The notes beneath the pieces are model-generated. The model worked only from the letters and a program-made list of their open reading frames with translations. It ran no database searches and was not told the DNA's origin. A stretch of DNA of 64,000 nt from a virus. Taxonomy: Duplodnaviria > Heunggongvirae > Uroviricota > Caudoviricetes. Location: IMG/VR virus record IMGVR_UViG_3300027917_000030. One strand, given 5' to 3'. Below are positions 11,601 to 47,366 of the stretch, piece by piece; the first letter of the stretch is position 1; each line of letters begins with the position of its first letter. The position numbers and the translations under genes are program-made.

Positions 11601-13208
11601 TTATGCAGTTGGAGGATCATTAGATTCTGTTGGATCATCTGCAACCATTGCTTCTGTGGTAATTAACATCGAAGCGACACTTGCAGCATTCTGTAGTGCA
11701 CACCTAACAACCTTTTTGGGATCAATAATACCAGCCGCAACAAGATCTTCATATTTACCCTGTGCTGCATTATATCCAAATTCCAGCCTATCTACATCCA
11801 AAATAGTTTGTTCAACAACATCAGGCTTATCGCCAGCATTCTCTACAATTTTCCTCAAGGGCGCTTTTAAACTATTAAGAATTATTTTGGCCCCCTCGCG
11901 CTCTCCTTTATCAAGTGTTTCTAGTAAGTTAAACACATCCTTAGCACATCTTAACAGTGCTACCCCGCCACCAGGTACAATTCCTTCCTCAACGGCGGCA
12001 CGAGTCGCATGTACAGCATCTTCAACCCTATCTTTCTTTTCCTTCATTTCTGGTTCAGTTGGTGCTCCAACTCTAATAACCGCCACACCACCAATTAATT
12101 TAGCCAATCTATCTTTCAACATCTTCCTATCATATTCGGAATCACAATGTTCAAGGTCTGCACGGATCTGAGAAGCCCTTTCTAAGATTGCTTCTTTCTT
12201 ACCGCCACCACCTACAATAGTTGTATTAGCCCTGTTCACAACAACTTTCCTGGCTTCACCAAGGTGAGATAGTTCAGCACGATCAAATGTCATACCAATA
12301 TCTTTGGAGAAAAGAGTTGCTCCTGTAAGAACACTAAGATCCTTGAGCATTTCTTTCCGTCGCTCCCCAAATCCAGGAGCCTTAATTGGGCAATTAAATA
12401 ACGCCCCGCGTAACTTATTTTGTATTAAGGTTGCCAACACTTTCTGACTGTAATCTTCCGCTATAATAAGAATGGGTTTGCCACTTTTCGAAACCTCCTG
12501 TAAGAGTGGTACAAGAGTTTCAATTTCTTCAAGTCTACCGTCAACAACCAGTACAAATGTTTCCGGGAGTTCCACAATACTTCTATCACCATCTGTAATA
12601 AAGTATGGTGTAATATAGCCTCTGTCAAATTGCATGCCATCCGACAGTTCCAAATATGTCTTAAGTGTTTGAGATTCTTCAATAGTGATTACGCCTTCTT
12701 TTCCAACCTTCTCCATGCCCTCCGCAATAAGTTTCCCGATCTGTTCATCGTTGGCAGAAATTGTTCCTACCTGAGCAATCTCTTCTGGATCTTGTGTAAG
12801 TTTTGTCATGTTGTTTAGAGTTTCCACTACAACATTGACAGCCCTATCAATACCCCTTTTTAAATCCACAGGATTATAACCTGCAGTTAATAATTGAAGA
12901 CCCTCGTTATAAATAGCCTGGGCCAAAACCGTTGCAGTTGTAGTCCCATCGCCCGCTTCATCGCAGGTCTTGGAAGCAGCAGTTTTTACCATCTGCGCTC
13001 CCATATCTTCAAACTGATCCTGCAAGAAGATCTCTTTTGCAATCGTTACCCCATCTCGTGTTACATGTGGTGCTCCCCACGACCTACGTAGTAGAACATG
13101 CCTACCTTTTGGACCCAAAGTAACACATACCGCATTTGTAAGTTTATCAACACCAGATTTTATTAGGGTCCTGGCTTCCGTATTATACTTAACAATTTTA
13201 CTAATCAT
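11601..13208 (-). CDS. groL: Chaperonin GroEL (Hsp60)
   Basis: 535 aa. GPKGRHVLL..GAPHVTRDGVTIAKEI, the AAVEEGIVPGGGVALL equatorial motif, and GDGTTTATVLAQA. It lacks the C-terminal GGM repeats, as phage GroELs often do. Confidence 0.9.
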   Translation of the reverse strand: MISKIVKYNTEARTLIKSGVDKLTNAVCVTLGPKGRHVLLRRSWGAPHVTRDGVTIAKEIFLQDQFEDMGAQMVKTAASKTCDEAGDGTTTATVLAQAIYNEGLQLLTAGYNPVDLKRGIDRAVNVVVETLNNMTKLTQDPEEIAQVGTISANDEQIGKLIAEGMEKVGKEGVITIEESQTLKTYLELSDGMQFDRGYITPYFITDGDRSIVELPETFVLVVDGRLEEIETLVPLLQEVSKSGKPILIIAEDYSQKVLATLIQNKLRGALFNCPIKAPGFGERRKEMLKDLSVLTGATLFSKDIGMTFDRAELSHLGEARKVVVNRANTTIVGGGGKKEAILERASQIRADLEHCDSEYDRKMLKDRLAKLIGGVAVIRVGAPTEPEMKEKKDRVEDAVHATRAAVEEGIVPGGGVALLRCAKDVFNLLETLDKGEREGAKIILNSLKAPLRKIVENAGDKPDVVEQTILDVDRLEFGYNAAQGKYEDLVAAGIIDPKKVVRCALQNAASVASMLITTEAMVADDPTESNDPPTA

Positions 13209-16762: not shown

Positions 16763-18241
16763 TCAACAGTTCGATTGAAATTCAACAATATACCTTAATC
16801 TATGTTGTTGTCCTGATCCAGAGCCTGCATAAGTCATATTTTCTGAGTTATAAAGACCACTACCTGGTATTGCATATACACTATGATAACCATGTGGAGG
16901 CTGTCTGAAAAATTGTGATCTGGTAACAACATGTGGTTTACCCACAACAACATCCTCTAAAAATAAAAAGGCCCTATTGCTCTTACTACCACCAGACCAA
17001 TATGCCCCACGGCAACCTGTATAATTCATTGATTTTGTTGAGTTTTCTGCATGGTACAGCGCGTCACCAAACATGGAGCCCGTATAAACTGCACCAGATG
17101 GGCGTATCAACAGGCCACGAGTAATGATACCAACCATATTTTGTGGACGCGTACCATGCCACAACGGCCAAACATTGGCAGTTGTGAAAACTTCTTTTTC
17201 ATCTTCACTCAAATCTGGGCGATTCAATTTAGTAAATTTTGGCTGATATTTAGTTCTTCCTTTCCCAATCTGCTTTGCAACTTTTTCTGCCGTAGCCATG
17301 AAATGGTCAGGCTCACCATTTCGAACAAGTTTGAAAATATTAAATATTTTAACACGCCCCAGAAAACTATGATTTCTTGCTCGAGTTTCGTGGGTTAACA
17401 TTTCAACCCATTTATAAATAGGATCAGAAGGATCAATCCAGTCCAACTCAGCATTTAACTTTCTATATTGTTCATCAACCGCCGTGCCTTTACCTAAAAC
17501 GGAAGCAACATTTTTAGCATCTAAAAAGGTATCCAACGTATCATGCTTTTCCATAACTCGATCAATATTATCGAGCCGCAAAGATGTTGGATCAATCTTA
17601 TGTGGCAAAACGTGTGGTATAAGACTGTAGAACTGTGATGTTAGATTATCATAAGCAGTTACATCTGACCTATTTGCCGAGATTAACTTTTTACATTCAT
17701 CTAAGACTGATCGCCCCTTGTCTATTTGTTCCCTGGTAAGTTGTCCCAGAGGACACTTGAGATTCATCTCGATAAAATGACCCGTAGAACCGAACCAACC
17801 AGACACCAAACGCTGGACTTCGGCATGTAGCACACTGATCCCCTTGCCAGCCTCAATGCCCGTCATAGGCTTTTTGATTTCTTTAGCACCAGCAGAACCA
17901 ACACTGGTGATTGCTAAATCAACTTCCCTATATGGATCCTTCTTGCGGTCTCGCTTCTTTTTAACCAGTGATTCATAATCCGACAAGCAAGCGTCTTCTG
18001 ATGAATAATATCTATATTCCTTCGCAGAAGTCTTACCAACTCTGCCGTACATCGTGAAAATTCTTGCTTTTCCATCGGATGCAACTTGAATCTCAGCATG
18101 ATAAAATTTATTTGAATTTTTTATCACGTCGGTGCAATTCCCTTCCCACCTTTTTGTCACCCTAAAGTCTGATGGAAACGGCGGCTGATTAGCATCACCA
18201 TCTTTCCAAACTTTCGCTTTCATACTTGCGCCCATACTCAC
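16763..18241 (-). CDS. Poly(ADP-ribose) polymerase-like protein: WGR domain + PARP catalytic domain
   Basis: N-terminal W..FY...GRVG (WGR). C-terminal LWHGTRPQNMVGIITRGLLIRP...GSMFGDALYHAENSTKSMNYTG...YIVEF aligns with PARP1 [23 protein letters not shown]...[21 protein letters not shown]...YNEYIVY. The H-Y-E triad is present. Confidence 0.8.
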   Translation of the reverse strand: MSMGASMKAKVWKDGDANQPPFPSDFRVTKRWEGNCTDVIKNSNKFYHAEIQVASDGKARIFTMYGRVGKTSAKEYRYYSSEDACLSDYESLVKKKRDRKKDPYREVDLAITSVGSAGAKEIKKPMTGIEAGKGISVLHAEVQRLVSGWFGSTGHFIEMNLKCPLGQLTREQIDKGRSVLDECKKLISANRSDVTAYDNLTSQFYSLIPHVLPHKIDPTSLRLDNIDRVMEKHDTLDTFLDAKNVASVLGKGTAVDEQYRKLNAELDWIDPSDPIYKWVEMLTHETRARNHSFLGRVKIFNIFKLVRNGEPDHFMATAEKVAKQIGKGRTKYQPKFTKLNRPDLSEDEKEVFTTANVWPLWHGTRPQNMVGIITRGLLIRPSGAVYTGSMFGDALYHAENSTKSMNYTGCRGAYWSGGSKSNRAFLFLEDVVVGKPHVVTRSQFFRQPPHGYHSVYAIPGSGLYNSENMTYAGSGSGQQHRLRYIVEFQSNC

Positions 18242-23188: not shown

Positions 23189-23479
23189 TTACCCCTTAGG
23201 TTTCCTGGTACTTGCCTGCTGTCTGGCTTTACGACCTCTGGACTTTCGCATTTTCTTAATAGCCTCTCTGTGTTTGCGTCGCTTAACCTCTGAAGGTTTT
23301 TCAGCAAAGCGTCTCTTTTTCAACTCAGTAAGTACGCCTTCCCGTGACATTTTATTCTTAAGATCACGCAGCGCCTTCTCAATGTTGTTATCAAATACTT
23401 CTACTTCTAGTGGACCTACCCGATGCTCTTTCTTTTGCTTCCAGGCTGGACTTCGATTTTGATTATCCATTCTTGCCAT
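23189..23479 (-). CDS. rpsU: Ribosomal protein bS21
   Basis: Compare ...FDNNIEKALRDLKNKMSREGVLTELKKRRFAEKPSEVKRRKHREA with E. coli S21 ...[39 protein letters not shown]. It has a basic tail. Confidence 0.75.
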   Translation of the reverse strand: MARMDNQNRSPAWKQKKEHRVGPLEVEVFDNNIEKALRDLKNKMSREGVLTELKKRRFAEKPSEVKRRKHREAIKKMRKSRGRKARQQASTRKPKG

Positions 23480-23783
23480 TTTTCTGCTTCCTTATTGCTG
23501 AAATAACTAAATATGCGATTAGAAATCCCAAAAAATCACTAATAGAATCACCAACTATTTTATTAATAAATTCTTCTTTACCCGCAAATGGAAATGAGGG
23601 CATGTTGTTTACAACCCAATGTTCAAACATTTCCCAAATAAAAGCAACTGCAAGAGCCGCTGCCCAAACCTTTTTCTTAAATACAGGATAAAGAACAGTA
23701 GTGATTGCTATAAACCAAACTATATGATGTAAAGAGTAAAAATCAAATAAAGTTGTGCCTCCGCTTCCCCATATCCAATTCAT
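23463..23783 (-). CDS. Small polytopic membrane protein (106 aa)
   Basis: Three predicted TM helices. Confidence 0.35.
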   Translation of the reverse strand: MNWIWGSGGTTLFDFYSLHHIVWFIAITTVLYPVFKKKVWAAALAVAFIWEMFEHWVVNNMPSFPFAGKEEFINKIVGDSISDFLGFLIAYLVISAIRKQKNGKNG

Positions 23784-25098
23784 AATCTAAAACCGCCCTT
23801 TCAAATAAATCTTGTAGACTTTTGTGTGGAAAAACAGGTACGGATGTTTTACCACTTGGCACGAGCGAAGCGAGATTTGGGTGTAGAGATAATAAAGCAG
23901 CATTACAATATTTACGCACCACCTTTAAATCCACATCTTCACTCACAGATTCTCCATTATTGATATGGCAATCTAATAAAGGAGTTAGTTTCTCGGAGGG
24001 ATTTACAGCACCATCGACTGCCAATAAGTGCTGCCACTCTCCATCTCGCTGATCTAAAAATATCTGCTTTTTGCCAGGAACAGTCATTGATTGTGGTCTA
24101 ATTATCGGTTTGTCATTTGTATCGTCATAGACCATTTCATATGATATATCCAAGAGCGGAGCATCTCTGGAAGTCACCAAATCCGCACCCACTTCAAAAC
24201 AATCTATTGGCAGACCACAACGAGAGAGTTCATCAATAATATACTCGTTTAAATTCCCAAATACAGTAATGCTAGCATTGGTTTTACCAGCCGCATCTAA
24301 TGTTCTCCGAACATCAGACAATATCTTTGGATCTTTAAACTCAAGTCGCACACCATCCAATCGAGGGCTTTCGGTTGCCAATACCGCACCGTGAACAGGA
24401 TCGTATGTATCGATTAGCAAAACGGGATCCTTGAATGTCCGTTTTATAATCTCATACGCCTCTTGTTCCCTCTTATTAACCATTACCCATGTATGAGACA
24501 TGTCCCCAGTAACAGGGATGTTAAATCTTCTACTGGCTTCAACATTTGATGTAGCCGTGAATCCAGAAATGTATGCAGCACGAACAGCCCGTATCGCAGC
24601 CTCATGATGTGTTCGTTTCGTGCTAGATTCAATCACAGATTTTCCCCTGGCAGCCAAAACAATCCTGGCTGCCTTAGAAGCAATTTTTATATCATGAGAT
24701 AAAACAGACAACACAAAGGTTTCCGCCATATGAACTTCAGGTAATGTACCAGTGATTCTAATTAATGGCTCACCAGTGAAAACAATCTCCCCCTCAGCCA
24801 TCGACCAAAACTCTCCATTAAATTTAAAGTCTTCCAAGAATCTATCAAAATTAGACATATTCATAATACTTTTAAGTATCGGAATATCTTTAAGAAATTT
24901 GATATCATCTTTGGTAAATTTAAGATTTAACAGGAATTCTTTTATCTCTTCTGTTCCAGCCATAACCAAAAATCGACGCTCAGGGGGCAGTTTGTGCACG
25001 AAAGCCTCACATGTTACCACCCTTTTATGCAGCCCTTTATAAAATTGAACTGCCATCATAGCAATTTGGTGTAGGTCAACTTTCAGACTTTCGTGCAT
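23743..25098 (-). CDS. pncB: Nicotinate (or nicotinamide) phosphoribosyltransferase, NAPRTase family
   Basis: FTGEPLIRITGTLPEVHMAETFVLSVLSHDIKIASKAARIV, RAAYISGFTATSNV, IPVTGDMSHTWV, LLIDTYD and GVRLEFKDP track E. coli PncB (LLRIEGPL..ETPLLNLINFQTLIATKAARV; RAAYIGGADATSNV; IPVAGTMAHSFV; LLVDTYD; GVRIDSGD). Confidence 0.75.
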   Translation of the reverse strand: MHESLKVDLHQIAMMAVQFYKGLHKRVVTCEAFVHKLPPERRFLVMAGTEEIKEFLLNLKFTKDDIKFLKDIPILKSIMNMSNFDRFLEDFKFNGEFWSMAEGEIVFTGEPLIRITGTLPEVHMAETFVLSVLSHDIKIASKAARIVLAARGKSVIESSTKRTHHEAAIRAVRAAYISGFTATSNVEASRRFNIPVTGDMSHTWVMVNKREQEAYEIIKRTFKDPVLLIDTYDPVHGAVLATESPRLDGVRLEFKDPKILSDVRRTLDAAGKTNASITVFGNLNEYIIDELSRCGLPIDCFEVGADLVTSRDAPLLDISYEMVYDDTNDKPIIRPQSMTVPGKKQIFLDQRDGEWQHLLAVDGAVNPSEKLTPLLDCHINNGESVSEDVDLKVVRKYCNAALLSLHPNLASLVPSGKTSVPVFPHKSLQDLFERAVLDYELDMGKRRHNFI

Positions 25099-25107
25099 TA
25101 TGAACTC

Positions 25108-25542
25108 CTAAAAATACCAATCTGGATCAGTGTCTCTCTTTTCTCCAAGAATTAACTTCAACTTATCTCGCGAATGAAGAATTTCTTGAATGATTCGAAA
25201 GTATGTATCGCGCCGTCGGCGATAGTCTTCATCATTTTTCACAGGTTTGGGATTATATTCCCCTTCATCCTTGGAACATATGTGTGGTCTATGCGGCGGT
25301 AAATCGATAAACGAACCACCCTCTTTCGGATCAACAGGAGAAATAATTCCACGACGAATCAAATCCTCTCGTAAATTTTTGGAATTTTTCTCAGTAGACA
25401 TCACGGGGGACGCCCTCTTCTTTGAGATAATTCCAGTTTTGTTTGGTGTAATTACACCAAAGGCAATCAGCAGTCGCCGTCGGTTCCTACACTCCTTGTC
25501 TGTTGCAAATGCCAGGTCATTTGAATTAACGGTTTGAACCAT
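25108..25542 (-). CDS. Hypothetical protein (144 aa)
   Basis: ORF downstream of the E1-like gene. No motif recognised. It is not an obvious ubiquitin-like protein and has no C-terminal GG. Confidence 0.3.
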   Translation of the reverse strand: MVQTVNSNDLAFATDKECRNRRRLLIAFGVITPNKTGIISKKRASPVMSTEKNSKNLREDLIRRGIISPVDPKEGGSFIDLPPHRPHICSKDEGEYNPKPVKNDEDYRRRRDTYFRIIQEILHSRDKLKLILGEKRDTDPDWYF

Positions 25543-26377
25543 AGTTTTCCCTTTCTATTTTGCGATCTTGGTTTACAACACTTAAGTTTTCTTTTACATT
25601 AAGCCGTGTTGTAAAAGTGTTTCTAATACTAAACTCCACCCCATGAGATGCTAGGGGCATGCGTAGCAGGACATTTTGTGCATAATTCATAACTGCCGTT
25701 GCAGCCGTAGCGTTTGTCATCATATTCTGTGGAGCAGAAATTGCACGCTCAGCGCAACTCAACTCTGAGTTAAACTTTGATTTATCTGCAAGAATTTCTG
25801 GATAGACTTCGGTGACAACAGGAAGACTAAAGATTCCCTCGGTTTTATCAGAGTCCCGATGTATATTAATGGCTGGGCCATAGTATGTAAGCATTGGTGG
25901 TGCATAGCCACATATAACTTGTCCGTTACACTCTTCATTTCCAGAATCAATCCAAAAAACTGCCTGTGATTGTGGCTTGGTGAAGAATGTTTTATGGATT
26001 AATTTCCTGGACGCATTATTATCAACACATCCAATAATTAAAATAGATTCTCCAGAGAACTTTGGAAAGTCTGAGGCCTTTTCAATATTGTTTGTGATTG
26101 CCGAAACTGATAACCCGAAAGCCGCTGCATACCTTTCCGCCAAAACTTCAGCCTTATTTTTCCCAATATCTCGAGAAATGAAATTTTGTCTAATTAAATT
26201 CTTTTCTTCGACAACATCCCCATCGGCTATAGTAAGATCGGCGATATGCTTTGTGCTAAGAAACCTTGCCAGGTGCCCAATAACAAATGTACCAGTACCT
26301 CCGCAACCTAAAACGAGAACATTCCTTATTGTTGGGTAACCCTTAAGAGTAAAAATTCGTGGTAAACCTTTAATCAT
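25526..26377 (-). CDS. ThiF/MoeB/E1-like adenylyltransferase
   Basis: NVLVLGCGGTGTFVIGHLARF (Rossmann), DGDVVEEKNLIRQNF (the D..E.NL.RQ motif of E1/MoeB), IIGCVDNNASR, and candidate catalytic Cys in NEECNGQVICGY. Confidence 0.75.
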   Translation of the reverse strand: MIKGLPRIFTLKGYPTIRNVLVLGCGGTGTFVIGHLARFLSTKHIADLTIADGDVVEEKNLIRQNFISRDIGKNKAEVLAERYAAAFGLSVSAITNNIEKASDFPKFSGESILIIGCVDNNASRKLIHKTFFTKPQSQAVFWIDSGNEECNGQVICGYAPPMLTYYGPAINIHRDSDKTEGIFSLPVVTEVYPEILADKSKFNSELSCAERAISAPQNMMTNATAATAVMNYAQNVLLRMPLASHGVEFSIRNTFTTRLNVKENLSVVNQDRKIERENYGSNR

Positions 26378-26379
26378 GG

Positions 26380-27408
26380 TTAAAACCTTTTATCTCTCCA
26401 GTTGGTAGTACAGGAAAAATAATCATCACTATCGTCATCGTCATCATCGTCTGGCGTGTGATGATTGCCATCTTCATCTATATAGAACAACTTTTCTCCA
26501 TCCTGAATGAACCACTTTTTATCCCCTTCTTCGAGATAATATTCCCCCTCTTCTGGTACAAAAGCATCATTCGGATATAGATAATCACCACTCAGAAACT
26601 TAGCCACCTCAGAGGGATTTGGTTCCTCCAAGACATGCTGCATTTGTTTTTCAAATAAAGGAAGTTGAGAATGAAAGCGTGAACCAGGAAAAGCAGAGGA
26701 TTTAAATGTCCTAATCTTTTGTTTCTTAACTTTGCGCAACCATTCTTTTGGAAAATCATCACAAAGTTCATTTTCCACATCGAAGATTTCGTCTACATCA
26801 ACTTCGATCTTATGACCACCAATCGAAAGTCTCAACTTGATCTCAGGATAGAACTGTCCGATTTTCCCGACAACACCAAAGAATCTATCATCCTTCTCGT
26901 CGCCATCATCTGTTCCAGAAAAGAATGCTGACATGCCACCGTGGCTATGCATTTCCAGTACTAAGATTTTTTCCGGACTCTCAAAAGATCTGGTGTTTTC
27001 ATATGATACAGAACCCCCAGACACTTTTTGTTTTGGGCAGTTTAAAATATATTCTTCGGCCTTTGTATCATAAAAGAACTGGACATGTGCCTCGCTCTGG
27101 TGTTTCTTATAGATTGCTCTGAAAAATGAAAGTGTTGTCTTTAGTAAGCGTGATGGAACGAGCGGGACATCAAGTTCCCATCCCTCTTCCATGTTAGAAG
27201 GGAGTCCGGGAATTCTGGTTTCTGCCTGATGAATATAGAATGTGCCAATCTTGTTCTTCCTAATCTGCCAGACACCATCTCCCTGCATCAAATATAAAAC
27301 CTTCTTTTTAGAATCTTTTGGAAGTTCCCCAATGTGATGATCAACCAGCATTTTCTGTAACGCAAGTTCCGATACTTCACTTTTTTGCAACGCAAGTTTC
27401 TTACTCAT
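26380..27408 (-). CDS. JAB/JAMM-family metallopeptidase (deubiquitinase-like) with acidic C-terminal tail
   Basis: EMHSHGGMSAFFSGTDDGDE fits HxHx7Sx2D exactly. A conserved Glu lies upstream. The C-terminal tail is DDDDDDSDDYF. Confidence 0.75.
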   Translation of the reverse strand: MSKKLALQKSEVSELALQKMLVDHHIGELPKDSKKKVLYLMQGDGVWQIRKNKIGTFYIHQAETRIPGLPSNMEEGWELDVPLVPSRLLKTTLSFFRAIYKKHQSEAHVQFFYDTKAEEYILNCPKQKVSGGSVSYENTRSFESPEKILVLEMHSHGGMSAFFSGTDDGDEKDDRFFGVVGKIGQFYPEIKLRLSIGGHKIEVDVDEIFDVENELCDDFPKEWLRKVKKQKIRTFKSSAFPGSRFHSQLPLFEKQMQHVLEEPNPSEVAKFLSGDYLYPNDAFVPEEGEYYLEEGDKKWFIQDGEKLFYIDEDGNHHTPDDDDDDDSDDYFSCTTNWRDKRF

Positions 27409-27409
27409 T

Positions 27410-28087
27410 TTAACGCCTCATTTCATTAAGAATTGTTTTGCCGGTTGCCGACAATGCTTCAGGAGGAAACTTTTCCACATCCTTTAAAGCCTTAACAAGA
27501 CTGCGAAATCCTCTGTGTGGTAGGTCCAGAAAATCAAAATCAACGGTGTTTGACTCAAACAAATCACCATTATATGTAGAGTCAAGAAATTGGCTGACCA
27601 ACATGGTAATAGCAAGTGGCGATTCAACTTTTTGTGGCTTCACATCACCCCAACAAACCCTGCCAGAACTACAGTTTGTATTCCCATAAGGGAATGTATA
27701 TAACGGATCCATCTCACCAAAAATTGGTCTTTTGAGAGCATGAACCGATGTGCTTATAACTTTCCTATCTTTCACTCTAAACACAAAAAGACAGGGCGGC
27801 AGAGGTAAATTATATTTTTCGGACTCATTTTTTGCATAATCATAAACCACACATACCTTCACCATAGATGGGGTCTCAACACCAACAAGATATTTTGAGG
27901 GTGTGCCGGTAAAAAACCTTGTGCCGCGAGGCAATATGCCAGTAGAAAATTGATAGGAGTTGGCCAAAGTTGATGTGAGGTCATCTACTCCAACCACTTT
28001 TTTAGCAACAGCCCCATTTTTATTTTTAATGGACATGAGTATATCTGGATTACCAGTTGTAAGTTTAAGTGTTAACACATCACTCAT
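27410..28087 (-). CDS. Hypothetical protein, possible divergent E2-like (UBC-fold) component (225 aa; start trimmed to MSDVLTL with a GGAGGG RBS)
   Basis: By position it is the gene between the candidate Ubl and the JAB/E1 genes. FPYGNTNCSSGRVCWGDV loosely resembles the HPN...C...W core of E2s. This is weak. Confidence 0.3.
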   Translation of the reverse strand: MSDVLTLKLTTGNPDILMSIKNKNGAVAKKVVGVDDLTSTLANSYQFSTGILPRGTRFFTGTPSKYLVGVETPSMVKVCVVYDYAKNESEKYNLPLPPCLFVFRVKDRKVISTSVHALKRPIFGEMDPLYTFPYGNTNCSSGRVCWGDVKPQKVESPLAITMLVSQFLDSTYNGDLFESNTVDFDFLDLPHRGFRSLVKALKDVEKFPPEALSATGKTILNEMRR

Positions 28088-28709
28088 ATTGTAGCCCTCC
28101 CATTTGCTTTGCCAGTGCCTTGTCAAATGCTGCCTGTGTAGCACTCTTCTGTCTTTTTGTTTTAGGTTTCGATCTTGCCTGTTTATCTTTCTCCGTCATT
28201 TCTGTTAACCATGGAATCAGTACATCCCATTTTTGTTTAAATTCTATCGCCGCTTGAGCCGCCTCAAAAAATCTATGTGGAGTTCTACCAGAATATCTAT
28301 CATATCTATAATAATATGTGCGGCCCGTTGTGCTAATAGATATATGTTTATTATACGAGTAAAAATGTGTTTGTAAATAGTTGTTTGTGTTAGAGCACAT
28401 TTCGTCAAAAAGTTGTCTAATTTCCTTCCCTTTCTCTGCCATATTACACTTCTGAATGGCCCCACGCAGTAGGTTAGTATGTTTGTCACTGAAGGTTACA
28501 TGTACATTGGAACCTGAAACTGAAACGGTACCCTCTGGAAAAGTTTTTGTTAGAAAGGTTTTTAACAGGCGTTTGCAACAATCAATAGCCTGAGGTGTTA
28601 GAGCATATTCGTTAGGCATTTTGCGCTTTTTGTTAACATATCCCAATTGCCTACATAGTCTAAATAACCGCAGAAAATCAATATGCAAATATTGAATTGA
28701 TCTATTCAT
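28080..28709 (-). CDS. Hypothetical protein ending ...KQMGG-LQYE (candidate Ubl-type precursor with a GG + 4-aa tail)
   Basis: 209 aa, first gene of the E2?-JAB-E1 string. It has Gly-Gly four residues from the C-terminus, as in Ubl precursors trimmed by JAB peptidases. The beta-grasp fold is not evident by eye. Confidence 0.3.
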   Translation of the reverse strand: MNRSIQYLHIDFLRLFRLCRQLGYVNKKRKMPNEYALTPQAIDCCKRLLKTFLTKTFPEGTVSVSGSNVHVTFSDKHTNLLRGAIQKCNMAEKGKEIRQLFDEMCSNTNNYLQTHFYSYNKHISISTTGRTYYYRYDRYSGRTPHRFFEAAQAAIEFKQKWDVLIPWLTEMTEKDKQARSKPKTKRQKSATQAAFDKALAKQMGGLQYE

Positions 28710-28718
28710 AACTTCCCT

Positions 28719-29042
28719 CTAAATGAAAACGCGAGAGTTGCCCTTAACCGGCGGCAAAGAATTTAAAACGGAGCGAAAGGTTTTAAGTGCAGGAAACTTT
28801 ACATCCAGTCGTTCCATCTCAGTTATAAGATTGTCTAAGTCTTCTTCCGAAATGAAATCGTCTGTGAATTCCATAGGAGATGAGATGGCTAAGATTTTCT
28901 CTAATAGTTTTAAGCCTTCCTCGTTTGCTCCGTCGATTGCAGTACACTCTTCAAAAATCTTTTTAACATTCATTACCATCTCCTTTGCCCACCTAAAGTT
29001 TTTTATTAGGTGGGTTAAACAATTAGCCCTTTGTTCCAGCAC
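28719..29042 (-). CDS. Hypothetical acidic protein (107 aa)
   Basis: ORF, no family recognised. Confidence 0.3.
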   Translation of the reverse strand: MLEQRANCLTHLIKNFRWAKEMVMNVKKIFEECTAIDGANEEGLKLLEKILAISSPMEFTDDFISEEDLDNLITEMERLDVKFPALKTFRSVLNSLPPVKGNSRVFI

Positions 29043-29217
29043 GAACCATGAAGTTTACAGATCCGTCCTCTTGCTCTTCAGCAACTGCATTCTCCAGACC
29101 AGGAAAAACCTCCGCCCATGCTTGGCGAACAGCCTCAGGCGTCAGACTGGCAGGAGCCTCAATTTCTTCACCACCAAAACGATAGGTACGAGTATCAGTA
29201 TCCATTTGTATTCCTCC

Positions 29218-29520
29218 TTATAGGTTATTGAGTCGCTCAAGAAGAGCAACGGCACGATCAAAACCAAGTTCATCCAAGGTTGCCTTAAGCACTCTGGCGG
29301 CACCCTCAACATCTTCATCGCTGTCCTCATAGTTCAGCACAGCATTAATAGCCAGTTCAAGAGCCTCAATGGGATCGCGAGCAACCGCACCACGAGAAAC
29401 GCTGTCGGTCAACAACGTCACGCGAGCCGCATACAACGATTCCTCACCGTCATAAGACGAGCCCATTTCTACTCTCCACTCATCTGTTTCATTTAGTGTT
29501 CTCAAAAGATCTTCCATCAT
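29218..29520 (-). CDS. Hypothetical acidic protein (100 aa) in a locally GC-richer patch
   Basis: ORF. Together with the adjacent 60-aa ORF at 29023-29205 it is visibly GC-richer than the surroundings. Confidence 0.3.
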   Translation of the reverse strand: MMEDLLRTLNETDEWRVEMGSSYDGEESLYAARVTLLTDSVSRGAVARDPIEALELAINAVLNYEDSDEDVEGAARVLKATLDELGFDRAVALLERLNNL

Positions 29521-30916
29521 TTCCTCCTATTAGTTTTTTCCAGTTAAAAACTCTAACAAATACCTTTCTCCTCCATTTACGATGAGCCAACCTATAACGC
29601 TCCGCACACATAACAAATATTTCATCGTGTCTTCTATTACTTATATGTGCAACTTCATGGTATGCCACATCCTCAAGAACCTCTTTTAACTCCTTGAGTT
29701 TTTTTGACGATGTTATATCTTTACACAAAGGGTTGATCAAAATGGTAGGTAATTCTGGTTTACCCATACACAAACCACGGACTTTTTTATTGAATATAAA
29801 GCCAACACGGAAACTATATATGGGGATTTCATTTGCTACTACCACTTCAAAAATCAGGGAACTCCAGATTTTTGCTAATGATTCTGAGATCGGATCAGCC
29901 ATAAACTGTTTTATCACTTCTTTATCGAATGATTTTGACCTCCTTACTATAAACTCATACTTAAAGTTTGGAAAATTAAAAACCGATTTGTTTACATTTG
30001 CTCCCTGAATACCTCCATTAATTGGAACTTGTGAAACAGGAGTATCCCAAAGCATCAACAACGATTTGGGAACAAGAATTCTGTTGCCCCCAATTTCCTC
30101 CTGAATATCTTCATCGAAGTTTTCTGTAGCAGATATAGGGTTGATAGCCAACTCACTCAAAAATCCTTGGATCTCGCAGGAATATTTGTGATTAATGGTA
30201 TCTCTATTTGACACCAACACTTTGGTAGAATATCCATTAAGTTCTGCAATTATTTGATTTTTAAGCCTACTAGTCGTGTAACGCTTGTGCATTTCAAGAC
30301 CATTTACCCTGACACTTACATCTTTAGAAAAGGCATCACAAGTGTATATGGTGCCCCACTTAAACTGTCTCACCTTTTTTTTACTACCAAAAGCATATGA
30401 TACTTTTGATGAATTTAAGTAGATGTCAGCATCAACTTCGTTCCTTGGGAGATACTCTATGGCAGCAGTCAGGGCGGCATTAAACTCCTGCTCATTATAA
30501 AAATATATAACGCATCTAGTACCATTGTAGTATTGACTTACTTCTCTTACAGAGTACTCTGATCCTTCCCCCTCAACAAGCCAGCATTTTGTGTGAATTG
30601 CATAAGAATTCCACGCAAAGAATAATATTTCTTTCGCTTTTCCAAAGCCACCTACGGCACCTTGTTGTTTATGGGATCCTCCCAACGCCAGGAGTTTAGA
30701 TAGAATGATATCCTTATCCATTCCACAACCATCATCCTGGACTACCAACGATAGATGACTTCTACGGAACTTAAACTTAATTGTACTTGAACCCGCATCT
30801 ACAGAGTTTTGCAAAAACTCTCTTATCAATGCACGAGCCCAGAAAACATATTCACGCTTGGCTGTTTTGTTGAAGTAATCTTTAGGTATATTAACCTTTC
30901 CACGGATTATTTCCAC
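29489..30916 (-). CDS. GHKL-superfamily ATPase domain protein with C-terminal HExxH motif (475 aa)
   Basis: N-terminal EFLQNSVDAGSS (N-box) and VVQDDGCGMD (G1 box) as in histidine-kinase/Hsp90/MORC ATPases. The C-terminus has DVAYHEVAHISNRRHDE. Confidence 0.55.
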   Translation of the reverse strand: MEIIRGKVNIPKDYFNKTAKREYVFWARALIREFLQNSVDAGSSTIKFKFRRSHLSLVVQDDGCGMDKDIILSKLLALGGSHKQQGAVGGFGKAKEILFFAWNSYAIHTKCWLVEGEGSEYSVREVSQYYNGTRCVIYFYNEQEFNAALTAAIEYLPRNEVDADIYLNSSKVSYAFGSKKKVRQFKWGTIYTCDAFSKDVSVRVNGLEMHKRYTTSRLKNQIIAELNGYSTKVLVSNRDTINHKYSCEIQGFLSELAINPISATENFDEDIQEEIGGNRILVPKSLLMLWDTPVSQVPINGGIQGANVNKSVFNFPNFKYEFIVRRSKSFDKEVIKQFMADPISESLAKIWSSLIFEVVVANEIPIYSFRVGFIFNKKVRGLCMGKPELPTILINPLCKDITSSKKLKELKEVLEDVAYHEVAHISNRRHDEIFVMCAERYRLAHRKWRRKVFVRVFNWKKLIGGNDGRSFENTK

Positions 30917-33104: not shown

Positions 33105-33133
33105 ATTTTTTTCGAAAATCACGCGCACGAGTT
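33105..33133. repeat. Copy 2 of the 30-nt TTTTCGAAAA/GC-dyad motif
   Basis: ATTTTTTTCGAAAATCACGCGCACGAGTT overlapping the stop codon region of lon. Confidence 0.6.
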
Positions 33134-35452
33134 TTCTTTGTTCATTAGTAGATGGTTGCCACCACTGGAAGAAATGTCCCCTGCAGATTTCGGACTATCA
33201 TCTACCAGTAATAACTCTAATGCTTCATTAAGACTACCTACTGGTATAAATTTCATATCATCCTTTACATCAGATGGTATTTCTTCAATATCTGCAACAT
33301 TTTGTTTCGGATAAATAACCTCCTGGATACCAGCCCTATGGGCTGCCAACACCTTCTCCTTTAAACCTCCAATTGGTAAAACTCTACCACGAAGAGTAAT
33401 CTCTCCCGTCATGGCAATATTATTGCGCACAGGACGGTTGGTGAATAGGGAAAGCATCGCAGCCGCTACAGCAATGCCAGCACTTGGACCATCTTTCGGT
33501 GTTGCACCAGCAGGAAGGTGGACATGAACATCATTCTTTGATAATTGTTCCAGATCAACACCCAAATTATCTGCGTTTGATTTAATCCATGTGTGCGCAG
33601 CCTTCGCAGATTCCTGTAAGACTTTCCCCAGGTTACCAGTCAGAATAATCTCCCCTTTACCTGGAGTTAAGGATGCCTCGACAAACAATATTGAGCCACC
33701 ATTTCTGCTCCATGCTAGCCCAGCACTAAGTCCAACTTCTGGATTCTCAATAGCCCTCTCAGCATAAATCTTCGGAGCACCTAAGAACTTGGGCACCATA
33801 TCAACCTTAACAACCTTAGCAGGATCTTTACCAGATGCAGCCGTAACAGCCACTTTTCTCATAATTGTACCACATTGTCTTTCCAGGTTTCTTACTCCAG
33901 CCTCGCTCGTATATTCCTCCACTATTCTGGAAATGGCATTTGGAGAGATGGAAACTTCATAATCCTTAAGACCATACTGTTCCTTCTGCTTAGGAATAAG
34001 ATGTTTCTGAGCAATTTTTACCTTATCAAAAGGAGAGTATCCGGGTATTTCAATAATCTCCATCCTATCATACAAGGCTGGAGGAATTGGTGAAGTTTCA
34101 TTGGCGGTCATGATAAACATAACATCTGACAAATCAAATGCTGTGCCGAGAAAATTATCTGTAAACGAATTATTTTGTTCGGGATCCAATACCTCCAATA
34201 AGGCTGATGCCGGATCGCCCCGAAAGTCTTTACTAAGTTTATCGATCTCATCTAATACAAACACAGGATTACGAGAGCCAACTTTTCTAATGTTTTGGAT
34301 AATCTTGCCAGGAAGTGCTCCTACGTATGTGCGCCGATGCCCTCTAATTTCTGCCTCATCGTGTACGCCACCAAGCGATATCCGTACAAATTTTCGTCCA
34401 ACTGCTCTTGCAATACTACGGCAAATCGAGGTTTTTCCTACTCCAGGAGAACCGGTAAAACACAATATTGTTCCCATTTTTCCTGAAGAAAGTTTGCGAA
34501 CTGCCAGAAATTCAATAATGCGCTCTTTGACAGTTTTCAAACCAAAATGATCTTCGTCAAGACAAACCTGGGCTTTTTCTATATCAAGAGAGTCATCAGT
34601 CACAACATTCCACGGAAGTGATGCTAGCCATTCCACGTAATTTAGTGTAACATGAAATTCGGAACTGTGTGGAGACATCATCTTGAGTCGTCGCAGTTCC
34701 TGATTTGCCAAACTGAGGGCTTCGCTTGGAAGATTAGCACCCTCAATCATTTTTTGTAACCGCATCAACTCGCTCGCAATTGATCCATCAGAGCCCGATG
34801 GCTCAGCATCAATTGAAACTGGCGTTTGTTTTGTAAGTTCCGCCATTATAGTCAGAAGTTCTTCAAGCCTTTTGCGTGGATCTTTTATACGCAAAAGTTT
34901 CAATTTCTGTCTACCAACAATCGGAAGTTGAGAAGCAATGCTATCCAAAAAAGCAGATAAGCCCTCTGATGTTATAGGCGTGTTTTCATCGGGCGTAATT
35001 GGCGTATTTTCCGTAACCATTTCTTTTAGTTGACGGATGGAGTTACTAATATGGTCGTCAACACTAAAGGATGGCTCCTTGATAATATCGATTTCTCCAT
35101 ATAGATAGGAACTCTCGGACTCCGCATCTGTACCAACAACTTTAAGCCAGGCCCTACGAGTTCCCATAACATTCACCCGTGCCATGACAGAACCATCTTC
35201 GTTCTTCATTGGTGTGATATGTTTTATTTCTGCTTCGCTACAAATACTGTAGAAATCTTTTGCCTTGGGATCATCGACATTCTCATCCTTTTGCATAGCA
35301 ATGATAATCTTGTTACCATTGTTCTTAGCCCTTTCAATAGCCTTTAATGAGAAGGGTCGCCCTACATCAATCTCACCGAATTGATGTGGAAAGATAACAA
35401 TGTCAGGGTCCCGCATTGGAAGTAGGGGCAGCATAATTCTTTCTTGAGCCAT
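33119..35452 (-). CDS. lon: ATP-dependent Lon protease
   Basis: 777 aa. It has an N-terminal Lon substrate-binding domain, AAA+ Walker A GSPGVGKTS, a sensor/arginine finger region, and the S16 protease motif PKDGPSAGIAVAAAM with the downstream catalytic Lys. Confidence 0.9.
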   Translation of the reverse strand: MAQERIMLPLLPMRDPDIVIFPHQFGEIDVGRPFSLKAIERAKNNGNKIIIAMQKDENVDDPKAKDFYSICSEAEIKHITPMKNEDGSVMARVNVMGTRRAWLKVVGTDAESESSYLYGEIDIIKEPSFSVDDHISNSIRQLKEMVTENTPITPDENTPITSEGLSAFLDSIASQLPIVGRQKLKLLRIKDPRKRLEELLTIMAELTKQTPVSIDAEPSGSDGSIASELMRLQKMIEGANLPSEALSLANQELRRLKMMSPHSSEFHVTLNYVEWLASLPWNVVTDDSLDIEKAQVCLDEDHFGLKTVKERIIEFLAVRKLSSGKMGTILCFTGSPGVGKTSICRSIARAVGRKFVRISLGGVHDEAEIRGHRRTYVGALPGKIIQNIRKVGSRNPVFVLDEIDKLSKDFRGDPASALLEVLDPEQNNSFTDNFLGTAFDLSDVMFIMTANETSPIPPALYDRMEIIEIPGYSPFDKVKIAQKHLIPKQKEQYGLKDYEVSISPNAISRIVEEYTSEAGVRNLERQCGTIMRKVAVTAASGKDPAKVVKVDMVPKFLGAPKIYAERAIENPEVGLSAGLAWSRNGGSILFVEASLTPGKGEIILTGNLGKVLQESAKAAHTWIKSNADNLGVDLEQLSKNDVHVHLPAGATPKDGPSAGIAVAAAMLSLFTNRPVRNNIAMTGEITLRGRVLPIGGLKEKVLAAHRAGIQEVIYPKQNVADIEEIPSDVKDDMKFIPVGSLNEALELLLVDDSPKSAGDISSSGGNHLLMNKENSCA

Positions 35453-43459: not shown

Positions 43460-45319
43460 TTAAGAAATCTGTAGTGTTTTAATTGTGTTTTTTGACACAA
43501 CATATAAACCACTGTTACCTGGGAAAAGATGACAACCTGAATCAACAAACGGTTCAGTGTCAGGAAATTCTTTAACAATCGAAATGGAATTGCCAGAGGG
43601 CTCTACCCGAACGATTCCCTCATCCGTCGCTGCCAGTAAGAAATTCCCAGCAGCACATTTGCCACGTATTGATCCGAGCCAAGTGCCATCCCCCTCCTTC
43701 GTTTCGGCTATAGCTTTAATTTCTCCTGTAGATTTCAATAGCATACATCTGTTGATAGTCTGCCCCTTTTCTCTTGTCGAGATTATTAACCATGCCCAGT
43801 TGCCAGCAAAGAAACATGTAGAATCAACAAGCTGTCCATGAATTGGCGGCAACTGTACCGAATCATTAATACCAGACGCCCCGTCAGAAAAAACAAAGCC
43901 CACGTTCAAATTGCCCGCACGATAAAATCCAACGCCGAATTTATCACCTACCCAAAATAACGTTTGGTTCTTTAACACATCACCAATATACTTTGAACCA
44001 TATAAATCACTTTTTTGTAATTTTCCATCGTAGATCCAATAATCAGCATGGCTATTACAGTCAAACATAGGGAGTGATCCAAGCCCATCTACCACAACCT
44101 TTTCTGGCTTTTCGCCAGGTGCCAATCTCACAAACTGATCGCGGTCACCTATAAGGGTATACTTTCTACGCAACCTAAATCGCATAGTAGGTTTAATTTG
44201 TCCCTTATAGTTACCTAAATTTTCATCACGTTTGAAATATCCATTTTCATAATATAGATATCGCAGTTTATCATTGTGAAGTGCGGCGTGTAAAATCATA
44301 CCAGAAGTTTGAAAAACTTTTGTACAAGTCACATTGCCCCTCACCGTTTCTGTCACTGCGGCTGGAGCATATTGTGCACAAGATGGGCACGCCTGTCTAG
44401 CATGTACTTTCCCACACTGCGTACACGTTGTCCATCTCATTTCCAGCAAATGCTCAGGAAACTCCAAACGCTTGTCTTCTTTAAACACAACATGAAAATG
44501 CTGCAATAAGCTATCTGGTAAGACACTGAAATGTTCTGCAGGCTTGGGGTATTTAACTTCCGGATCAAAAACCGTTATTCTTTTAAGTGGTCTGGTGGCA
44601 TGATTAACTCTTTTGTTTTTATCGGCCGGTTTATATACACCACCATATGGTCCCACATACAAAAGACTTTGCATCAATAGAATGTTAAATGCGTACCAAT
44701 CAGAATCAAATGTATATGGCCTAGATAGAATCGGCCTTACTGCTGCCGAATCGCTCAAAAGCGGGTCTACAAACTTTTCTGTATATACGCTACACAAGAA
44801 AGGTCCGAACTGAAAGCTATCTGCATCGATGAGGTATGCTTCACCATTGGCAACCATAATATTTAGATCATTGAAATCTCCAATGATAACACCGGCTCGG
44901 TGTACGGCAGAAACCGTCGATCTCAAATCCTTGAAGGTTCGAATGACCATGTCATTATTAACACCAGCCCGCCGAAAATTCCTATCCGAATATCTCAGCA
45001 GAACTTCAAACCCCTTTAGAAATCTCATAGAGTAGCCCAAGATTTTCTTACCAGCCTTGTTAGTGGCTAAGTGTTGTGGGGCAATGACTCTACTAGGCAG
45101 ATTTCTAGGGAATGCTGGAAGCTTCTTCTGATGTTCTAGAATGCGAGCTTCAGCAACCAGCTGATCTTGTTTAAATCCAGTGAAGTCTGGGTGATTCGGT
45201 TGTTTAAAAACCTTAAGCACAAGTCCCGCGCCAATATCGAAGATGTCCGCTTCCCCACCCTTGCCAATCGATTTGGTGGGATCAAGGTTAAGTTTTTTCC
45301 CCTGTAGATAAACTATCAT
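43460..45319 (-). CDS. Protein-kinase-like domain protein with a large C-terminal beta-rich domain (619 aa)
   Basis: Catalytic-loop-like HRAGVIIGDFNDLNIMV and a DFG-like LIDADSFQF. The C-terminal half is Gly/aromatic-rich and repeat-like. Confidence 0.5.
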   Translation of the reverse strand: MIVYLQGKKLNLDPTKSIGKGGEADIFDIGAGLVLKVFKQPNHPDFTGFKQDQLVAEARILEHQKKLPAFPRNLPSRVIAPQHLATNKAGKKILGYSMRFLKGFEVLLRYSDRNFRRAGVNNDMVIRTFKDLRSTVSAVHRAGVIIGDFNDLNIMVANGEAYLIDADSFQFGPFLCSVYTEKFVDPLLSDSAAVRPILSRPYTFDSDWYAFNILLMQSLLYVGPYGGVYKPADKNKRVNHATRPLKRITVFDPEVKYPKPAEHFSVLPDSLLQHFHVVFKEDKRLEFPEHLLEMRWTTCTQCGKVHARQACPSCAQYAPAAVTETVRGNVTCTKVFQTSGMILHAALHNDKLRYLYYENGYFKRDENLGNYKGQIKPTMRFRLRRKYTLIGDRDQFVRLAPGEKPEKVVVDGLGSLPMFDCNSHADYWIYDGKLQKSDLYGSKYIGDVLKNQTLFWVGDKFGVGFYRAGNLNVGFVFSDGASGINDSVQLPPIHGQLVDSTCFFAGNWAWLIISTREKGQTINRCMLLKSTGEIKAIAETKEGDGTWLGSIRGKCAAGNFLLAATDEGIVRVEPSGNSISIVKEFPDTEPFVDSGCHLFPGNSGLYVVSKNTIKTLQIS

Positions 45320-46163
45320 TGTTTTTCCGCCTAATCACAACCAGAGTTGTATCATCTTGCAACCAACCCACCTCACGTTGAATTTTTTGTGCTTTCCTAT
45401 CAAGACGCACGCTGGTTCTATTTACCAGGGCCAACTTTCGGTTAATTGCCTGTTGATTTGAAAAATACCGATCATCAGTCCAGAACTGACTGATTGGTCC
45501 GACCAACTCTTTTTTGCCGGGAATCGCTAGCTCATCAGCCCTTTCAAAATCATCAATGCCGTCAGTAGCAAGCATCAAACTATCAAGTTCATTAGTCGGA
45601 ATAATCCTAACCACTTTAAAATTCAAATCTTTTTCATTTACATTAACAATATATTTCTTTATTAAATTATATGCAATATAGGGCGGAGCATTATTTGCAT
45701 AGGGGCCTAACTTAATGATTTCCCCATTTACCACAACCGTGCCATCGCCTATAGAAATAACGAGAGTGTGCTCGTAACCAATAATGGCAACCAGGCACGT
45801 AAAAAGAAAATATTTCGTAATGCCATTAATTCCTTCAAAAGTGCTCCAGCTGGCTCCTTTTAAATCATTGAGGATTTGTTTTTTCTTATCCTCAAGCTCT
45901 AGATCTAAATCAATCAACCCGGTAGGGTCTATGAAAATATTTGGAGGATTGGAAAATCTTTTCGCAATAATACTTGATCCAAGCTGTGCGCCAACTTCAC
46001 TAAATTCTCCGCTGCCACAACCATCACATACTACCGCTACAATTTCGCCAGCACTCCCATATGCAATCTTAACTGCATCCTGGTTGTTTTTTCCGACATA
46101 CAAATGGTGCCTACCGATCGTAGAACCATGCGCAATTTCAAACAAATCTTTAACTGAAGTCAT
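45288..46163 (-). CDS. PP2C-family Ser/Thr phosphatase
   Basis: AVVCDGCGSGE and LMLATDGIDDF metal-binding aspartate motifs, SpoIIE/PP2C-like. Confidence 0.65.
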   Translation of the reverse strand: MTSVKDLFEIAHGSTIGRHHLYVGKNNQDAVKIAYGSAGEIVAVVCDGCGSGEFSEVGAQLGSSIIAKRFSNPPNIFIDPTGLIDLDLELEDKKKQILNDLKGASWSTFEGINGITKYFLFTCLVAIIGYEHTLVISIGDGTVVVNGEIIKLGPYANNAPPYIAYNLIKKYIVNVNEKDLNFKVVRIIPTNELDSLMLATDGIDDFERADELAIPGKKELVGPISQFWTDDRYFSNQQAINRKLALVNRTSVRLDRKAQKIQREVGWLQDDTTLVVIRRKNNDSLSTGEKT

Positions 46164-47062: not shown

Positions 47063-47366
47063 AATCTCTCCCAGACAATGTGCCCGAAACATCAACAGCA
47101 ATATCAATGCCTTTTTTTAATGCTAAAGTCTGGATTTCCTTTAAATCTTTTTCAGAAGTACCTTCAAGATTACTAACTATATAGAGTAATTGAATTCTGG
47201 TTGCTTCGGCTGCAGAATATCCCATGACCAGACCGTTCTTTAAATTTTTCATAATATGTCTGGCATACGTCTGAGCATACGGTTTAAATTCAACTTTGTC
47301 TTCATCTTGCCTATCAACAATATTGATAATTCTACGTTGGAATTCTTCCCACTCTGAAAAATTCAT
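47052..47366 (-). CDS. Hypothetical protein (104 aa)
   Basis: ORF. Confidence 0.3.
   Translation of the reverse strand: MNFSEWEEFQRRIINIVDRQDEDKVEFKPYAQTYARHIMKNLKNGLVMGYSAAEATRIQLLYIVSNLEGTSEKDLKEIQTLALKKGIDIAVDVSGTLSGRDYDN

Follow-up and report, generated by a model that had tools for sequence, protein, structure and literature searches.

Does a large phage carry a complete pathway for conjugating a ubiquitin-like protein (Ubl), and if so, which of its proteins is the modifier and to which family of operons does it belong? These questions are raised by a run of minus-strand genes at positions 25108-30916 of a 64,000-nt stretch of Caudoviricetes DNA (IMG/VR record IMGVR_UViG_3300027917_000030), called the window throughout. 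An earlier note on this DNA had read the run as a Ubl-E2-JAB-E1 operon akin to BilABCD and to the accessory modules of the cyclic-oligonucleotide-based anti-phage signalling system (CBASS), with a 209-amino-acid (aa) protein as the modifier. The general idea of a phage-borne operon for Ubl conjugation or deconjugation is supported by our analysis, with E1, E2 and JAB proteins present. We place it, with good confidence, as a divergent operon of the PRTRC ('ParB-related, ThiF-related cassette') type, the operon type 6d of Iyer, Burroughs and Aravind (2006; PMC1779556), belonging to a large phage and conjugating a Ubl by the mechanism proposed below. We regard it as a divergent case of a cassette already known from bioinformatics and not as a system of a new kind. 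The open reading frames (ORFs) listed in the earlier note are all present on the minus strand, and the cassette comprises the following features:

29023-29205, minus strand: Ubl, 60 aa (PRTRC_C / Prok_Ub type), ending ...VRAGTKG-stop
28988-29014, minus strand: 9-bp stem-loop, starting 9 nt past the Ubl stop codon
28719-28973, minus strand: p85, ~84 aa, between the Ubl and the F-position gene
28080-28709, minus strand: p209, clade-specific protein in the PRTRC_F position
27410-28087, minus strand: E2-like protein (Prok-E2_D / PRTRC_B type; PF14460, TIGR03737)
26380-27408, minus strand: JAB/JAMM metallopeptidase (PRTRC_A type; PF14464, TIGR03735)
25526-26377, minus strand: E1-like ThiF-family adenylyltransferase (PRTRC_ThiF type; PF00899, TIGR03736)
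25108-25542, minus strand: p144, trailing gene, overlapping the E1 stop by 17 nt

The seven genes are arranged in the order Ubl, p85, p209, E2, JAB, ThiF, p144, and those from p209 through p144 are consecutive and abut or overlap, which is consistent with a single operon. The order Ubl, E2, JAB, E1 proposed earlier holds only in the expanded form Ubl, p85, p209, E2, JAB, E1, because the 60-aa Ubl and the ~84-aa gene had been overlooked, and it does not hold with the 209-aa protein as the Ubl.

Core enzymes and modifier of the cassette

The E1-like protein, 283 aa long, contains a single ThiF domain (PF00899, E 2.3e-18), in agreement with the adenylyltransferase called in the earlier note. By far its best NCBIfam match is PRTRC_ThiF (TIGR03736, E 1.6e-36), which aligns over nearly the full length and scores 125.8 bits against a cutoff of 144.75, and its best sequence match in the PDB is MccB (E 2e-9). 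The GCGGTG Rossmann loop and residues R82, D119, R124, D144, N147, Q153 and C208 show no variation between phage and canonical sequences; C208 lies in an S-C-A-E motif.

The JAB protein scores just above the Pfam cutoff (PF14464, 25.7 bits against 25), and its sole NCBIfam match is PRTRC_A (TIGR03735, E 9e-16, 58 bits against a cutoff of 101.8). The exact JAMM motif described earlier, E106...H154-x-H156-x7-S164-x2-D167, was confirmed and is invariant in nine relatives. The motif is preceded by a JAB-N region at the N-terminus and followed by an acidic extension at the C-terminus, the poly-Asp tail already seen in the earlier note. Within the JAB-N region the Arg is largely retained; the Trp that canonical members have behind it (R-P-W) finds no aligned counterpart in the phage clade. 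Among solved proteins, Citrobacter BubCD is the closest by sequence (E 0.024).

The gene described earlier as weakly E2-like encodes a Prok-E2_D protein by its Pfam score (PF14460, 31.4 bits against a cutoff of 25), and it also matches PRTRC_B (TIGR03737, E 1.5e-6), below the curated cutoff. Five of its residues, P97, P133, N136, C145 and G147, are invariant in ten relatives that include canonical PRTRC_B, and C145, which lies in GRVCWG, is the candidate catalytic cysteine. Past this cysteine, the S-H-P-N-H of the canonical loci (L002 and L004 in our numbering of related loci) is replaced by Y-N-G-D-L in the window and by N-x-D-L in most phage relatives. Searches of PDB sequences with the E2 and p209 profiles returned nothing useful. 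Judged from their sequences, the cassette enzymes look active, with catalytic and ATP-binding residues intact.

The true Ubl of the cassette is the 60-aa ORF at 29023-29205, which is preceded by a strong ribosome-binding site. Its best NCBIfam match is PRTRC_C (E 6.7e-5, below the curated cutoff), and it can be aligned to canonical PRTRC_C, with which it has a G-[TR]-K-G C-terminus in common. All 13 close homologues, 58-62 aa in length, end in KG-stop, and two of them carry the Joint Genome Institute label 'PRTRC genetic system protein C'. The AlphaFold model (predicted local distance difference test score, pLDDT, 85) shows a bb-a-bb arrangement and a flexible tail; the protein is predicted to adopt a beta-grasp fold. 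Since the ORF stops right after ...VRAGTKG, its C-terminal Gly is already exposed.

In related phages, the modifier also comes in precursor form. The Ubl of locus L012 is precursor-like and ends ...AGTKGR, and several phages encode head-to-tail repeats: five in Bacillus phage Edson (L003 2839-3738), each ending VQAGTKG and followed by a 15-aa tail, three in Vibrio phage D69 (L006 5391-6182), and six and two in IMG/VR contigs (L021 2718-3836 and L023 4278-4655, respectively). Each repeat of these poly-Ubl proteins ends in (A/T)GTKG, with a short non-Ubl tail after the last one. Such precursors require an endopeptidase that cuts after KG, which fits the JAB protein, always encoded next to them.

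The stem-loop located behind the Ubl stop codon has a minimum free energy of -17.8 kcal/mol (z -2.65). Stem-loops of other sequence occur at the same place in L001 (~57-92, z -5.2) and L011 (~3933-3977, z -6.2), and L097 has at ~2360-2400 a G+C-rich inverted repeat followed by a T-run, judged by eye from the sequence rather than folded; none is present at this position in L012. The structure is likely an attenuator or a stabiliser of the mRNA 3' end, and it suggests that the Ubl message is meant to exceed the enzyme messages.

The modifier proposed in the earlier note was p209, read as a GG-tailed precursor that the JAB protein would cleave after MGG. The C-terminus of p209 in the window indeed reads ...KQMGGLQYE. 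This ending is not a family trait, with the GG kept in 0 of 38 aligned relatives and C-termini variable, and the structural model sought as a check on this idea shows an alpha/beta core with a 60-residue helix and no beta-grasp match. With a bona fide Ubl encoded 300 bp upstream, we see next to no chance that p209 is the modifier.

Family placement and distribution

As described in PMC1779556, operon type 6d comprises a small beta-grasp protein whose C-terminal Gly is conserved, a mainly helical protein that diverges rapidly, an E2-like protein without the classical His, a JAB protein extended by an additional N-terminal domain, and an E1-like protein. The NCBIfam models of the PRTRC system (TIGR03735-03738, 03741 and 03742) describe proteins that, in a Sulfuricystis plasmid and in Ralstonia phage Dina, follow the order E, C, (small protein), F, B, A, ThiF. 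The window retains the core of this order, C, small protein, F-slot, B, A, ThiF, as compared with L002 and L004, and its modifier is a small stand-alone beta-grasp Ubl with the conserved C-terminal Gly, as expected for 6d. For the E1, JAB, E2 and Ubl proteins, the best or only NCBIfam match is the corresponding PRTRC model, while the Pfam matches to ThiF, Prok-JAB and Prok-E2_D exceed their cutoffs.

Related cassettes occur in many other viruses. A scan of IMG/VR with the JAB alignment identified them in at least 97 viral contigs, many of which measure 100-264 kb; a scan with the single JAB protein had found nothing. In the 80 of these 97 loci that were fetched for neighbourhood counts, E2 lies immediately upstream of JAB in 77 and ThiF immediately downstream in 77, and a canonical PRTRC_F was detected in 13. 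Among deposited phages, a related E1 is encoded by Bacillus phages Edson, WH1 and KLEB27-3, Salmonella phage Arash, Vibrio phage D69, Ralstonia phage Dina, which is annotated as PRTRC, and Burkholderia phage BgVeeders33. NCBIfam scans of the Edson, Arash and D69 cassette proteins gave weak, sub-threshold matches only, such as that of the D69 E2 to PRTRC_B (E 0.006), together with RutB and capsid-model matches at chance level. In Arash, the ThiF-like and E2-position proteins (L005 gp246c and gp248c) are annotated as 'structural protein'. Because the virion preparation also contains ribonucleotide reductases and RNA polymerase, we do not take this listing as evidence of packaging; at most, it would show that the proteins are expressed.

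Several observations weigh against the placement as a Ubl-conjugating PRTRC/6d operon. All four PRTRC scores fall under the curated cutoffs of the NCBI hidden Markov models (HMMs), so that the cassette is to be regarded as a divergent relative. No window protein matches PRTRC_E or PRTRC_F in NCBIfam, and phmmer comparisons of window proteins with canonical PRTRC_E, PRTRC_F and small proteins gave nothing significant. No ParB domain was found among the ~40 window ORFs, a part of the total, that were scanned against Pfam; the parts of phage Dina and plasmid pSTJ1 that were inspected lack ParB as well. The window E2 is missing the His given in the 6d row of Table 1 of PMC1779556 as absolutely conserved C-terminal to the E2 Cys, its putative UBC fold is predicted from an HMM match, and a Foldseek search with the Ubl model gave no significant matches. 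Finally, we found no experimental study of a PRTRC-type cassette in the literature consulted, a 2026 paper stating of the cassette's function that it 'has not been studied', and since no cassette of this type has been tested experimentally, conjugation is deduced from homology.

Three other assignments were weighed against these data. The first is the one made in the earlier note, in which the cassette, by its set of parts, would be a member of the Bil (BilABCD) family or of the Cap2/Cap3 accessory modules of type II CBASS. JAB, E2 and Ubl match none of the PADLOC defence models; all four core proteins match PRTRC models best and follow the PRTRC/6d gene order; the scanned flanks hold no CD-NTase or effector genes, and the cassette is carried by a phage rather than located in a host defence island. 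We therefore abandon this assignment as highly improbable. The second follows from the pairing of a Gly-ending beta-grasp protein with a single-domain ThiF-type adenylating enzyme, also seen in ThiS-ThiF and MoaD-MoeB: the Ubl and E1 could act as a sulfur carrier, in which a thiocarboxylated Ubl donates sulfur to a cofactor, tRNA or DNA. The ThiF and MoeB equivalog models score the window E1 far under their cutoffs (25-53 bits against 159-647) and over the Rossmann half only; the E1 groups with PRTRC_ThiF and not, as the earlier note had envisaged as a refutation, with MoeB/ThiF enzymes beside MoaD/ThiS genes. Pfam and NCBIfam scans of the cassette revealed no ThiG, ThiH, MoaE, rhodanese or cysteine desulfurase. 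Moreover, in 77 of 80 viral loci the fixed neighbours include a JAMM peptidase and an E2 whose Cys is invariant, and poly-Ubl precursors point toward the logic of a protein modifier. A sulfur carrier is thus quite unlikely. The third is a role in partition or maintenance, suggested by the name of the cassette and by some genome papers, PRTRC cassettes having been described as putative partitioning cassettes of plasmids, integrative and conjugative elements and prophages. That role has never been tested, the scanned ORFs contain no ParB domain, the cassette enzymes are protein-modification enzymes, and the host element resembles a large phage with many auxiliary genes; we hold this explanation to be very unlikely. 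A divergent PRTRC/6d operon for Ubl conjugation accounts best for the four core matches and their order.

Accessory proteins, neighbouring genes and genome context

Besides the core proteins, the cassette encodes three further proteins, p209, p85 and p144. An exhaustive search with p209 retrieved 52 cluster representatives, which share an N-terminal motif, QYxxIDFLRLFRLC..LG.V.RKRKMP, and an AQxxFNxAL motif near the C-terminus; the linker between the two is variable and has many Lys, Glu and Arg residues. The protein has no family in Pfam, NCBIfam, PHROGs or PADLOC, an NCBIfam scan of 39 of its relatives gave no match, and its hhalign comparison with PRTRC_F returned a probability of 0.14%. 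The p209 gene lies directly upstream of E2 in every sufficiently long related contig (L001, L011, L012 and L097), and this constant place identifies it as the true, clade-specific occupant of the F slot. We consider it a candidate specificity factor or substrate.

Homologues of p85 are found at the same position in L001, L011, L012, L096 and L097 (E 8e-18 to 6e-3), all ending in F-I, as does the window protein (...SRVFI-stop). A 107-aa ORF starting at GTG and overlapping the Ubl is an alternative to p85 and is probably too long; the AAGGAG ribosome-binding site favours the start at ATG 28973. Positional counterparts end ..SDFI in Edson, ..NDYV in D69, ..RSFV in Arash and ..DFI, ..DYI or ..DFV in many IMG/VR loci. 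A [D/S/N]-[F/Y]-[I/V/L]-stop tail thus recurs on the small proteins behind the Ubl even where the remaining sequence is unrelated (L001, L011, L012, L096, L097, L003, L005, L006, L016, L017, L020, L023 and L084). It looks like a docking tail, and p85 may be a docking or adaptor subunit.

The third protein, p144, has homologues directly past ThiF in L012 (E 8e-14) and in L097 (E 2e-31, with an identical DTDPDWYF end), and matches no family in Pfam, NCBIfam, PHROGs or PADLOC. Several cassette proteins close with an acidic stretch followed by aromatic residues: the C-terminus of p144 reads ...DTDPDWYF, that of JAB ...DDDDDDDSDDYFSCTTNWRDKRF, and the counterpart of p100, a protein described below, terminates in L012 (9400-9744) with ...DDDDDWY.

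The complete seven-gene block is present in L012 and L097 and in part in L001 and L011. PHROGs has no family for JAB, E2, Ubl, p85, p209, p100 or p144, blastn comparison with 50,697 phage records returned no hit for the region, and an exact look-up of the window E2 product showed that it is not on record. The genes and features that surround the cassette, and those that characterise the genome, are listed below:

29218-29520, minus strand: p100, 100-aa GHKL partner, overlapping the GHKL gene
29489-30916, minus strand: GHKL ATPase with a C-terminal HExxHx5H zincin-like domain, outside the core cassette
23743-25098: NAPRT gene, adjoining the cassette on the p144 side
23189-23479, minus strand: ribosomal protein S21
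33119-35452, minus strand: full-length Lon protease
11601-13208, minus strand: GroEL
45288-46163, minus strand: PP2C phosphatase
56711-57586, minus strand: Thg1-like tRNA-His guanylyltransferase

The protein encoded immediately upstream had been described as a GHKL ATPase with a C-terminal HExxH, and this description proved accurate (HATPase_c_3, E 4.5e-7): in 23 of 23 relatives, the N-box, the G-boxes and residues H420, E421, H424 and H430 do not vary. The family numbers at least 158 homologues, mostly on large phage-like contigs, and always pairs GHKL motifs with a C-terminal HExxHx5H. A small downstream gene usually follows, and in the window this gene, p100, is overlapped by the GHKL gene over 32 nt.

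Are the GHKL-zincin protein and p100 parts of the Ubl system, for instance a sensor, an E3-like or a protease arm? Both genes lie directly upstream of the cassette on the same strand, the two overlap each other, and the adjacency is retained down to 40% GHKL identity: in relatives at least 40% identical, the GHKL gene and a ~100-aa gene are found just upstream of the Ubl, and the pair adjoins the cassette in L009-L012. However, L097 encodes a complete cassette without GHKL or p100 while keeping both flanks, DUF7227 and p126 on one side and, on the other, Ubl, p85, p209, E2, JAB, ThiF, p144, NAPRT and S21. Distant GHKL homologues have no E1, E2 or JAB nearby, and a GHKL-family profile matched within 7 kb of none of the 80 other viral cassettes. 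Since Lon and NAPRT are equally syntenic, the adjacency reflects the colinearity of these genomes. A functional link is accordingly unlikely, and the view that the GHKL protein is integral to the operon is not borne out; GHKL-zincin and p100 are a two-gene module separable from the Ubl cassette. We had also considered p100 as an equivalent of PRTRC_E and rejected it, as L097 shows that p100 travels with the GHKL gene and not with the cassette. A connection between Lon and the Ubl system, suggested by synteny only, was likewise set aside.

The earlier note was right to describe the setting as phage-like and adjacent to NAD metabolism. Nearly all large ORFs of the window are on the same strand, and it also encodes GroEL, a CCA-adding enzyme, an RNA ligase, Lon, S21, NAPRT, NAD synthase and one tRNA. 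The set formed by S21, the Thg1-like protein, PP2C, Lon and GroEL is typical of the gene content of a huge phage, and the cassette is probably hosted by such a large, 'huge' phage with many auxiliary genes. Synteny with the relatives L012 and L097 spans Lon, GHKL (missing from L097), the cassette, NAPRT and S21.

The window also encodes a PARP-like protein (16763-18241, minus strand) with WGR, PARP regulatory and PARP catalytic domains, and an NAD synthase (46160-47107) in the same genome as NAPRT. In combination, the PARP-like gene and the NAPRT/NAD synthase pair give the phage NAD salvage and a second protein-modification system of eukaryote-like character.

Proposed pathway and comparison with known systems

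From the four core identities, the intact residues, the conserved free Gly, the gene order and the poly-Ubl genes of related phages, all of which are observed here, we infer how the pathway would operate, including each chemical step, the accessory roles and the biological purpose. The 60-aa beta-grasp Ubl would be produced with its C-terminal Gly already free. The single-domain ThiF-type E1 would adenylate this Gly using ATP, after which the Ubl could possibly be held on C208 of the E1 as a thioester, and would likely be handed to C145 of the E2 before being transferred onto lysines of target proteins. The JAMM peptidase would strip the Ubl from these targets and, in relatives with an extended or tandem poly-Ubl, would also mature the precursor. 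In this scheme, p85, p209 and p144 would be clade-specific accessories that occupy the slots of other, canonical accessories, and most likely confer target specificity or are targets themselves. The purpose is probably to modify host or phage proteins during infection.

We tentatively extend this scheme to a broader hypothesis, which we find plausible and to which we give less than even odds: large phages may carry the complete Ubl pathway for host takeover, counter-defence or assembly of virions or replication compartments, the F-slot proteins p209, p85 and p144 serving as swappable specificity modules or substrates. If this were true, PRTRC-type cassettes would be an offence or establishment system of mobile elements, not a host defence, and conjugation of a phage Ubl to host or phage proteins would provide a virus-side counterpart of the host-side Bil and CBASS pathways. 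Roles in anti-phage immunity were recently demonstrated for type II CBASS and Bil, and the biochemistry of Bub has been worked out. PRTRC/6d, predicted in 2006, has yet to be tested. Phages, including huge ones, commonly carry the cassette, as seen in the IMG/VR contigs. The parts list is now defined, with a 60-aa free-Gly Ubl and the candidate catalytic residues C208 of E1, C145 of E2 and E106/H154/H156/D167 of the JAMM peptidase, and together with the polyubiquitin-like precursors of relatives, it makes a compact and directly testable system.

How does this cassette compare with known systems? The characterised bacterial Ubl pathways are CBASS Cap2/Cap3, Bil and Bub. Type II CBASS resembles the window in a distantly similar E1 adenylation domain and in a JAB peptidase that antagonises conjugation. 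By contrast, E2 and E1 are fused in Cap2, which conjugates the CD-NTase itself and has no free Ubl, whereas the window has separate E2 and E1 genes with the JAB gene between them, and flanks in which no CD-NTase was found. Bil shares the Ubl, E2, JAB and E1 parts, and its deduced E1-E2 thioester chemistry ends in a Lys isopeptide. Its E1 has tandem IAD-AAD domains and a Cys domain and its Ubl is ISG15-like (PMC11601596), as opposed to a 283-aa E1 with one ThiF domain and a single 60-aa beta-grasp Ubl in the window, and Bil is a host-encoded defence. Bub (6E/DUF6527) is likewise a bacterial Ubl-E1-E2 operon on mobile elements, and BubCD is the nearest solved JAB sequence; its intermediates are Ser/Tyr oxyesters and its peptidase is a DUF6527 serine protease, while the window has an E1 and an E2 with an invariant Cys each and a JAMM peptidase. 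ThiS-ThiF and MoaD-MoeB, which are parallel in their two-protein core, differ by the sulfur-pathway partners that the window lacks and by the E2 and JAB to which the window Ubl and E1 are obligately linked, as well as by the poly-Ubl of its relatives.

The closest counterpart is PRTRC/6d itself, which has the same four core proteins in the same order, a small Ubl ending in G-x-K-G, an E2 with an invariant Cys and without the classical HPN His, and a JAB with an N-terminal extension, and which likewise resides on mobile elements including phages, as in the PRTRC-annotated Ralstonia phage Dina. The window departs from it in its sub-cutoff scores, in the lack of a detectable PRTRC_E or PRTRC_F, with the unrelated p85, p209 and p144 occupying or flanking the F slot, in an E2 without the post-Cys His, and in a huge-phage-like host genome in which no ParB was seen. 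A last likeness reaches beyond bacteria: the tandem Ubl repeats in phage PRTRC-type cassettes resemble eukaryotic polyubiquitin genes.

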